Assembly (NCBI GenBank): GCA_046045965.1
Contig: JBJOKS010000037.1
Coordinates: 1-39,319, forward strand
Length of the DNA: 39,319 bases
Source: Cyanobacteriota bacterium
GTDB taxonomy: Bacteria > Cyanobacteriota > Cyanobacteriia > Cyanobacteriales > Nostocaceae
Reading direction: 5' to 3'
A model generated the notes under the pieces. That model was not told the DNA's origin and made no database searches. It saw nothing but the letters and a program-made list of their open reading frames with translations. Shown piece by piece: positions 29,901-31,537 of this stretch (position 1 is the first letter of the stretch; the number at the start of each line of letters is the position of its first letter). The position numbers and the translations under genes are program-made.

Positions 29901-30392
29901 TTAGAAATCATCAACCAAAGAACTCAAGCGACTGATTACAGGGTCAACCTCTTGGGGCGGAGTGGGATCGGGAGTGTAAGCAGTATTGTTAACTGCTTCT
30001 ACCGTTGGTACTGATGAAGTTGCAGGTTGAATAGACGCTGCTTGATTGACCATGATAGCCAGTTGTGCAACTTGTTGACTAAGCTGCAACATCTGGCTTT
30101 CCATCGTTTGCAAACGATTAGATTCCTTAGCAAAAAAACGTTCCTCAAGTCCAGCTATTTGACGTTGCAATTCACCGAGTTGTTGTTCCATCGGTAGTGC
30201 TGCTGTATTCGGAGCAGGTCGTACAGAGTCTGTTACACATAAAGCTTGCCAAAGAGCCTCTTTACAAAGGTCACTGAAAGTCTTTTCCGGCTGTGCCTCC
30301 AAATAACTTTCTACCTGTGCTAACAAGCTTTCATCACCAATTTCTGGATTAAAAGTGACAGATTTAACTACTTTTTTTGACCATTGGAACAT
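29901..30392 (-). CDS. parR: ParR-like adaptor (CorR-type)
   Basis: 5 bp downstream of the ParM-family gene; RHH-like KSVTF..FSDLCKEALWQAL, coiled coil, C-terminal helix VISRLSSLVDDF. Confidence 0.8.
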   Translation of the reverse strand: MFQWSKKVVKSVTFNPEIGDESLLAQVESYLEAQPEKTFSDLCKEALWQALCVTDSVRPAPNTAALPMEQQLGELQRQIAGLEERFFAKESNRLQTMESQMLQLSQQVAQLAIMVNQAASIQPATSSVPTVEAVNNTAYTPDPTPPQEVDPVISRLSSLVDDF

Positions 30393-30397
30393 CAGTT

Positions 30398-31537
30398 TTA
30401 TGACCTAGCAGCGCGACTAGCAGACAATTGCGCCTCTCCGTAAAGATACTGCCCCAAAGCGTTAGCTTGGCGGGAAGGTGCAGCTAAATAGGCATTAATT
30501 CTGGCTTCTTTGAGTAAACGTTGTACATCTTCCCAGAAGAACTCACCACCGCCACCAGTGATAATCACATCAGTTACACGCTCTGGCAACCAAGCCAATA
30601 CACGAGAGCAAATATCCCGTGAAAACATTTCGGTAAGGTTAGGGAGAAAATCGTCTAAATTGGTGGGTTTGCTTTCACCTTTGGGACGGTAAAAACGCTC
30701 ACCCTTGGGTTTGTTAACGGCAGAAATCAGTGCTAGAGACTGGCTATCAGCCCCTGGAATTTCCTTAGCAACAAGTTCATAGAACTCACTCATACCAAAA
30801 TTTTCGCTTTGAGAAAGACCTCTAGCGAACCGGAAGTTATCAACCATAATGAGGTCAATGGTTTGATGTCCAATATCCACAATACCTACAGAAATTTTGG
30901 TCAAATCAGGAATTCCCGGACCTTTGTTGGGTTGAGCTTCTGTCCATAAAAGACTGCCATAACCCTCTGGCATTACCCAAACTTTGGTGATATTCAAGGA
31001 CAAAGACTCACCCCGGAAGTTAAAAACATGGGGACCTGTCACCAAGCTAATTAACTTTGCTTTTTCTCTCTCAAATTGTTCTAAGGAAAGGAAAGGCAGA
31101 CCCAATACAACGGAAATTTCGTCTTTGAGTTTAAAGTAGCCAGCAGCAGCCAATACTTTGACCAGTGCATCTTCTACCTTAGATTGTCCAACTCCTAAAC
31201 CTGCGCCAAAGTCCGCTGCTAACTGTCCTACGGCGAATCCAGTACCTTGATATTCCAGCCACAAATCCATTAAAGGATCAGTTGCCTTAGATTCAAACAC
31301 CCCACCGCGTATTTGTTCCATTGACATTTGCTTGACATTGGCAGGGATGAAGGCTACAGTTCCTGGTTCGCGGCTGACACAAGTTTTGGTGGAGGTTCTA
31401 CCCAAGTCAACACTGAGAATATTTTTCCCTGAAACACCAACTGGCTTATTAACGTTGTTTATAGGGGTTGACGCTACTCGATTCATTGGTATAGCAGCGG
31501 CATTCATTGGGTTAGCTACGGGAGGTTGGTCTGTCAT
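30398..31537 (-). CDS. parM: ParM/StbA-family actin-like ATPase (CorM-type)
   Basis: Actin-fold motifs: SVDLGRTSTKT (P1), MPEGYG (C1), VDIGHQTID (P2), ITGGGG (adenosine), ANALG (C2). Confidence 0.92.
   Translation of the reverse strand: MTDQPPVANPMNAAAIPMNRVASTPINNVNKPVGVSGKNILSVDLGRTSTKTCVSREPGTVAFIPANVKQMSMEQIRGGVFESKATDPLMDLWLEYQGTGFAVGQLAADFGAGLGVGQSKVEDALVKVLAAAGYFKLKDEISVVLGLPFLSLEQFEREKAKLISLVTGPHVFNFRGESLSLNITKVWVMPEGYGSLLWTEAQPNKGPGIPDLTKISVGIVDIGHQTIDLIMVDNFRFARGLSQSENFGMSEFYELVAKEIPGADSQSLALISAVNKPKGERFYRPKGESKPTNLDDFLPNLTEMFSRDICSRVLAWLPERVTDVIITGGGGEFFWEDVQRLLKEARINAYLAAPSRQANALGQYLYGEAQLSASRAARS

Follow-up and report, generated by a model that had tools for sequence, protein, structure and literature searches.

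A corM-corR pair on a Nostocaceae contig as a probable membrane-tethered cytoskeleton, and fused CorM copies in its relatives

A gene for an actin-fold ATPase followed by a gene for a small adaptor is the arrangement of plasmid ParMRC systems, which segregate DNA. The occurrence of such a pair among housekeeping genes raises the question of whether it still acts on DNA or acts at the membrane, as the initial annotation had proposed by reference to the CorMR system of Anabaena. The window analysed here is the whole stretch of 39,319 nucleotides from a Nostocaceae cyanobacterium (assembly GCA_046045965.1, contig JBJOKS010000037.1). The comparisons below indicate that the pair is very probably the chromosomal corM-corR operon of a Nostocales-type filamentous cyanobacterium, working as CorMR: an actin cytoskeleton, tethered to the membrane, which governs cell shape and does not segregate DNA. 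This system is already published in two 2025 papers; the finding in the window is real, not new. The report on Anabaena to which the annotation referred has the content ascribed to it (Springstein et al., bioRxiv 10.1101/2025.06.27.661541), and this preprint is the main mechanistic source. The second paper describes the same system in Nostoc punctiforme under the names FcmB and FcmC (Nguyen et al., mSphere 2025, PMC12645912). CorMR and FcmBC are regarded as one system because the window proteins match both. The features of the locus are summarized in Table 1.

Table 1. Features of the corM-corR locus in window coordinates
Feature	Position	Strand	Basis
corM / fcmB (P0001): actin-fold ATPase, 379 aa	30398..31537	-	PDB 9RMI, NCBIfam NF052678, dN/dS
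N-terminal 38-residue extension of CorM	31424..31537	-	28/38 (74%) identical to 9RMI N-terminus
5-bp spacer between corM and corR	30393..30397	-	sequence
corR / fcmC (P0002): adaptor, 163 aa	29901..30392	-	NCBIfam NF052682, G381 comparison, dN/dS
CorR residues 1-10: membrane-binding amphipathic helix according to the preprint	30363..30392	-	identical to G381 CorR
CorR residues 8-52: putative ribbon-helix-helix dimerisation region	30237..30371	-	two predicted helices
CorR residues 68-120: predicted long helix / coiled coil	30033..30191	-	model, pLDDT 74-90
CorR residues 151-163: C-terminal amphipathic helix	29904..29942	-	hydrophobic moment, model
Conserved non-repetitive block: likely promoter(s), 5' UTR, AGGAG ribosome-binding site	31538..31682	-	15-sequence alignment

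Both open reading frames lie on the minus strand as first annotated, and the gap between them is AACTG, which lies between the stop codon of corM and the ATG of corR. The actin fold claimed for the 379-aa protein was recovered in Pfam, with ALP_N matching from residue 43 together with MreB-like_C. The top match in PDB was CorM itself (9RMI, E=1e-211); the two further matches were both plasmid ParMs, with E values of about 1e-4. The 9RMI chain, which is the same letter for letter as protein P0122, is identical to the window CorM at 320 of 379 positions (84.4%). The 59 substitutions are mostly conservative, and the phosphate, PEG and adenosine motifs of the two proteins are the same. With the FcmB equivalog model NF052678 the protein scored 725.7 bits (cut-off 300), and dN/dS values of 0.07-0.11 against six relatives indicate purifying selection on corM. 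The N-terminal extension had been described as being of low complexity. It is indeed 38 residues long, and 22 of these are Pro, Asn, Val or Ala; the low complexity is, however, only mild, its entropy being 3.43, compared with 3.75 on average and 3.13 at the lowest in the rest of the protein. In Anabaena CorM the extension is reported to be disordered and to modulate filament dynamics (Springstein et al.).

The adaptor scored 230.5 bits with the FcmC equivalog model NF052682 (cut-off 90): both equivalog models were passed at more than twice the cut-off, over nearly the full length. Genome G381 encodes a CorM identical to 9RMI, followed by a CorR of 162 aa, and the window CorR is identical to the latter at 107 of 161 positions (66.5%). 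Residues 1-18 match exactly and residues 1-52 are nearly identical, whereas the linker is divergent. Purifying selection is also seen on corR, with dN/dS values of 0.12-0.24 against six relatives. A Shine-Dalgarno-like AGG for corR sits within the 3' end of corM; the ribosome-binding site of Anabaena corR is likewise reported to be inside corM (Springstein et al.).

The structure model of CorR (mean pLDDT 60) has helices at residues 21-33, 39-52, 68-120 and 151-162, and the N-terminal helix is unstructured in it. The preprint assigns the N-terminal region to the ribbon-helix-helix (RHH) class; in our monomer model, residues 8-52 contain the two helices and the strand is not formed. CorR had no match in Pfam, and searches of PDB by sequence, profile and fold returned only chance matches to coiled coils. 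For this reason the RHH, or ParR-like, fold is regarded as putative. The long helix at residues 68-120 matched generic coiled coils only, by sequence and by profile.

Both ends of the adaptor had been singled out in the initial annotation, and the two sequences named there, MFQWSKKVVK and VISRLSSLVDDF, are present in the protein. The C-terminal helix is amphipathic as had been claimed (hydrophobic moment 0.59, shuffle p 0.011). It seems, however, to bind CorM and not to anchor the protein in the membrane: deletions in Anabaena assign CorM binding to residues 150-162 and membrane binding to residues 1-10 (Springstein et al.). For residues 1-10 the hydrophobic moment is only moderate: 0.535, the fifteenth highest among 153 windows, with a shuffle p of 0.095. 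This value is below that of the C-terminal helix, so that the sequence alone would point to the wrong end of CorR for the membrane. Prediction of a complex between CorM 37-379 and CorR 125-163 supports the CorM contact weakly, with a score of 0.57 against 0.01 for the best control. Of 157 solved pairs 116 attained this mark, as did 2 of 215 mismatched ones; in only 18 of those 157, and in both mismatches, it was attained with a score no higher than 0.60. The runs agreed in at least 82% of the contacts, with a partner pLDDT of at least 52. The tail of the window CorR, SSLVDDF, differs from SQYLDDF of the characterised CorR by three substitutions and occurs exactly in 3 of 78 relatives; as a natural allele, the variant could at most help to map the CorM pocket.

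The function of the pair may be considered on the basis of these orthologues. Deletion of corMR in Anabaena is reported to give round cells with a normal distribution of DNA, and CorM forms transverse cortical filaments that are antiparallel (Springstein et al.). In N. punctiforme, rod shape is lost and labelling of the lateral wall is reduced in the deletion, DNA distribution is normal, and the membrane filaments depend on FcmC (Nguyen et al.). If the window copy behaves in the same way, CorM with ATP would form dynamically unstable antiparallel double filaments encircling the cell circumference. Residues 1-10 of CorR would bind the inner membrane and its last helix would hold CorM. A long MinC would compete for the same CorM pocket, by which filaments might be cleared from the poles and septa, and loss of the system would lead to round, swollen cells. 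The MinC encoded by this genome is 354 aa long and keeps the CorM-binding helix. Its S64 and L69 align with S50 and L55 of the Anabaena helix, which is reported to depolymerise CorM filaments; non-Nostocales MinC is described there as short and without this helix (Springstein et al.). In genome G026, which belongs to another family, MinC is indeed short (260 aa) and lacks the CorM-binding helix. The CorR of this genome (locus L020) has 218 aa; its coiled coil is longer and its N-terminus has diverged.

As to how the filaments set the shape, steering of lateral peptidoglycan synthesis seems somewhat probable and is favoured over a purely constrictive girdle, which is rather unlikely. The accessible text of Nguyen et al. 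leaves wall synthesis versus constriction open and names neither an amphipathic helix nor control by MinC. The window copy does not advance this mechanism.

With CorM/CorR of Anabaena sp. PCC 7120, the window pair shares the high CorM identity, the conserved N-terminal extension, the nucleotide motifs, a CorR of similar length (about 162 aa) that begins with the same helix, the 5-bp spacing, the chromosomal housekeeping context and the long MinC with its CorM-binding helix; it is unlike that system in the tail and linker of CorR and in the downstream neighbours. With FcmB/FcmC of N. punctiforme, gene order is the same and both NCBIfam models are passed, and no difference at the family level was seen. 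Plasmid ParMRC systems (E. coli R1; cyanobacterial ParM/StbA) also have an actin ATPase and then a small adaptor whose tail is acidic and hydrophobic. They differ in sequence (21-28% identity) and in the parC, which was not found at the window locus by a weak test, and they are described as being without the N-terminal extension or a membrane helix (Springstein et al.). In addition, mobF or mobC genes adjoin four of the five annotated plasmid copies examined, whereas the window pair is not in such a context.

A CorM match at E<=1e-30 was obtained in 388 of 389 family genomes and in all 352 near-complete ones, and the FcmB cut-off was passed by 66 of 251 genomes sampled from the order. FcmBC is reported in all heterocyst-forming species examined (Nguyen et al.). 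The two 2025 papers already state that the system is general in these cyanobacteria, and NCBI naming models exist for both genes. Six genomes (G073, G352, G355, G362, G537 and G494) gave no full CorM match, lower-scoring matches only, or a stop inside the match; incomplete assembly, divergence of the gene or its loss might explain these cases. The 80 best of 255 confirmed genome loci were picked by similarity and include kin that are not independent; CorR adjoins CorM in all 80. Upstream in the same 80 loci, Gfo recurs in 77, QueC in 73, HlyC in 57 and DedA in 49, and CPBP adjoins corR downstream in 20. Of the 78 measurable relatives, 60 have a gap of 5 bp between the two genes and 16 a gap of 8 bp, and the first 11 residues of CorR, MFQWSKKVVKS, are unchanged in 74 of 78 complete relatives.

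The order HlyC-QueC-Gfo-DedA-CorM-CorR is common to the window and G381. In quick trees the window CorM stands beside chromosomal copies from Sphaerospermopsis on a short branch. Twelve distant or plasmid ParMs fall together on one side of a branch in a quick tree (SH-aLRT 86); their identity to the window CorM gives the range quoted above. A second quick tree (LG+G4) leaves out these 12 and two near-duplicate fusions. The orthology to CorMR asserted in the initial annotation is therefore backed by the identity to 9RMI, the equivalog models, the synteny and the trees.

The surroundings were found to be as first described. The neighbours of the pair are the genes for ferredoxin, DUF3326, CPBP, DedA, Gfo/Idh/MocA and QueC, and the contig also encodes ClpPX, trigger factor, Asd, DapA, RNase J and urease. 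No rep, integrase or relaxase gene was detected among the 37 window ORFs scanned in Pfam; a sub-threshold match to Tn916-Xis (E 0.006) lies on the tail of a DUF2887 protein. Judging from the housekeeping content of this 39-kb draft contig and from synteny with closed chromosomes, the location is probably chromosomal. Membership in the CorM clade is by itself no proof of this, because CorM-clade genes also occur on plasmids. The plasmid ancestry of the family, and a low-GC stretch with an orphan ParA 5-8 kb away, might suggest that an integrated plasmid left the pair behind as an inert remnant. The chance of this is close to nil: the dN/dS values span 0.07-0.24 over the two genes, their GC and GC3 are like those of the window housekeeping genes, the pair is near-universal in the family and syntenic, and the scan of the 37 ORFs found no mobility genes. 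The genome contains one corM-corR copy.

The absence of an iteron array had also been noted. None was found in 31538-31871, which contains only one tandem of 2x10 nt, by a test that is weak. Upstream repeat counts were at the null level, with 25 and 24 of 30 Markov-null sequences as high, and five plasmid parM controls were at best borderline (1/30 and 2/30 nulls in the two best). The lack of parC or iterons is weak evidence, since the test barely detected repeats in these controls. Two candidates for parC were rejected: the 2x TGCTATACAT tandem (31831-31850) has only two copies and is outside the conserved upstream block, and the downstream GGGAACA repeats belong to a genome-wide short tandem repeat. 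The pair might still segregate DNA, that of a resident plasmid or the copies of the chromosome, by means of a parC that is cryptic and free of repeats. The low power of the repeat test is in keeping with this, as are the ParM ancestry (weak PRK13917 and PDB ParM matches) and the high conservation of the RHH-like region of CorR. Such a role is nevertheless extremely improbable. Anabaena CorR, to which the window CorR is nearly identical over residues 1-52, is reported to shift neither its own 400-bp corMR promoter nor E. coli parC in EMSA (Springstein et al.); deletions in the two species leave DNA distribution normal; and the downstream repeats occur genome-wide.

The conserved block of about 145 bp directly upstream of corM is single copy in the genome and holds most of the invariant columns of the 15-sequence alignment. 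A short inverted repeat, TAACT...AGTTA, is present near the start. A promoter and terminator scan of 29700-31900 gave counts at the shuffle level and no sigma-70 consensus in the block. RHH adaptors of plasmid systems commonly repress their own operon, and CorR might accordingly combine a cytoskeletal role with a residual role on DNA, as a repressor acting at this block. This is very unlikely, because the EMSA with the corMR promoter was negative (Springstein et al.), and because the two start sites upstream of fcmB and the dependence on SigC reported for N. punctiforme (Nguyen et al.) account for the conservation. A cytoskeletal function at the membrane is thus the preferred reading of the pair. 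Two RNA-labelled runs contain 0.96 and 0.82 of the words of 29800-31900. These matches are not taken as evidence of expression, since the contigs show neither level nor strand and carry-over of DNA is possible.

CorM also occurs outside chromosomes. Four of 207 matching plasmid records carry a CorM of 68-76% identity, which contradicts the statement that the CorM clade comprises chromosomal systems only; a search of 72,556 plasmid records for CorR found nothing at E<=1. In three of the four CorM records (L032:6557-8083, L033:6149-8050 and L034:6551-8080) the open frame is 508-633 aa, longer than annotated, and CorR is not nearby. These fusions begin with a hydrophobic helix rich in Gly and Ala and a stretch resembling a coiled coil. 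The plasmid annotations start the genes too late and miss this N-terminal module. Of the 389 family genomes, 72 have the module; the window genome does not. In the 30 best loci, CorM sequence is near the module in 28 and CorR in none (1.5-kb flank), and the same 336-aa gene, with only a faint HNH match (E 0.07), is upstream of the module in 28. Further fusion or module loci and proteins are L022 and L127-L156, and P0142, P0150 and P0285-P0347.

The 63 module proteins comprise 29 with actin, 15 of the dynamin family, 3 with PF05419, which we take to be GUN4-like (one of them also FtsZ-like), and 16 with other or no domains. In PADLOC, two payload proteins match PD-T4-6 strongly and two match LeoBC weakly; neither CorM nor CorR of the window was matched. 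A search of the ESM Atlas with the module gave one match at 0.83, which is uninformative. Within the chromosomal CorMs, the fused actins branch at several separate points; monophyly of the fusions was rejected (p-AU 0.0008) on a quick LG+G4 tree of 28 vs 33 rows. For three of nine pairs, the module shows a synonymous divergence of about 0.2-0.3 and the actin part one of 1.2-1.9, which fits exchange of the payload. The dN/dS of the fused actin part is 0.08-0.42. Long branches, the absence of the PEG glutamate in 8 of 30 fused rows and the truncation of several copies argue against a function of the fusions.

The fusions, the plasmid cases and the polyphyly are facts of these sequences, and they suggest that mobile elements re-use a domesticated cytoskeleton. 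Tentatively, a mobile two-gene cassette in the relatives may have recaptured the host corM repeatedly, fusing it to its own anchor of hydrophobic helix and coiled coil in place of the disordered N-terminus. The product would be a putative self-anchored actin that does not depend on CorR. The cassette would then be a membrane module with an interchangeable payload (dynamin-like, FtsZ-like or other), by which the host cytoskeleton would be hijacked or imitated, perhaps in defence or to the advantage of the plasmid. This lead would matter more than the window pair itself. CorM fusions were not found in print in narrow searches, and the supplementary lists of the preprint may include such copies. 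P0150, L032, L033 and L034, all of them fused and without CorR, pass the FcmB equivalog NF052678 with 561-671 bits. Because such fusions pass the cut-off, this model will give the name FcmB to proteins that are not orthologous.

Several other features were observed in the window. The spacer between dedA and corM is longer than its counterpart in the majority of close relatives. In the region concerned (31690-31871), which carries the 2x10-nt tandem and is single-copy in the genome, some of the additional sequence recurs only in L049 among the 15 aligned. Tandem repeats of 7 to 9 bp are present in many intergenic regions (for example 4052-4263, 29052-29193, 32496-32646 and 35955-36043). Presumably these are of the STRR kind common in heterocystous cyanobacteria; they inflate ORF starts, as in dedA, and create spurious ORFs. 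Between the urease genes and a metallophosphoesterase, the stretch 21388-25300 is low in GC (0.26-0.36) and looks acquired. It encodes the orphan ParA-family ATPase (21388-22281, 7.6 kb from the pair), an 86-aa unknown protein, a STAND/NB-ARC-like ATPase (GC3 0.145) and a WG-repeat remnant. Finally, the 296-aa protein encoded at 26316-27206, to which no family was assigned, contains a long PE/PT repeat as well as a hydrophobic segment and is syntenic in close relatives.
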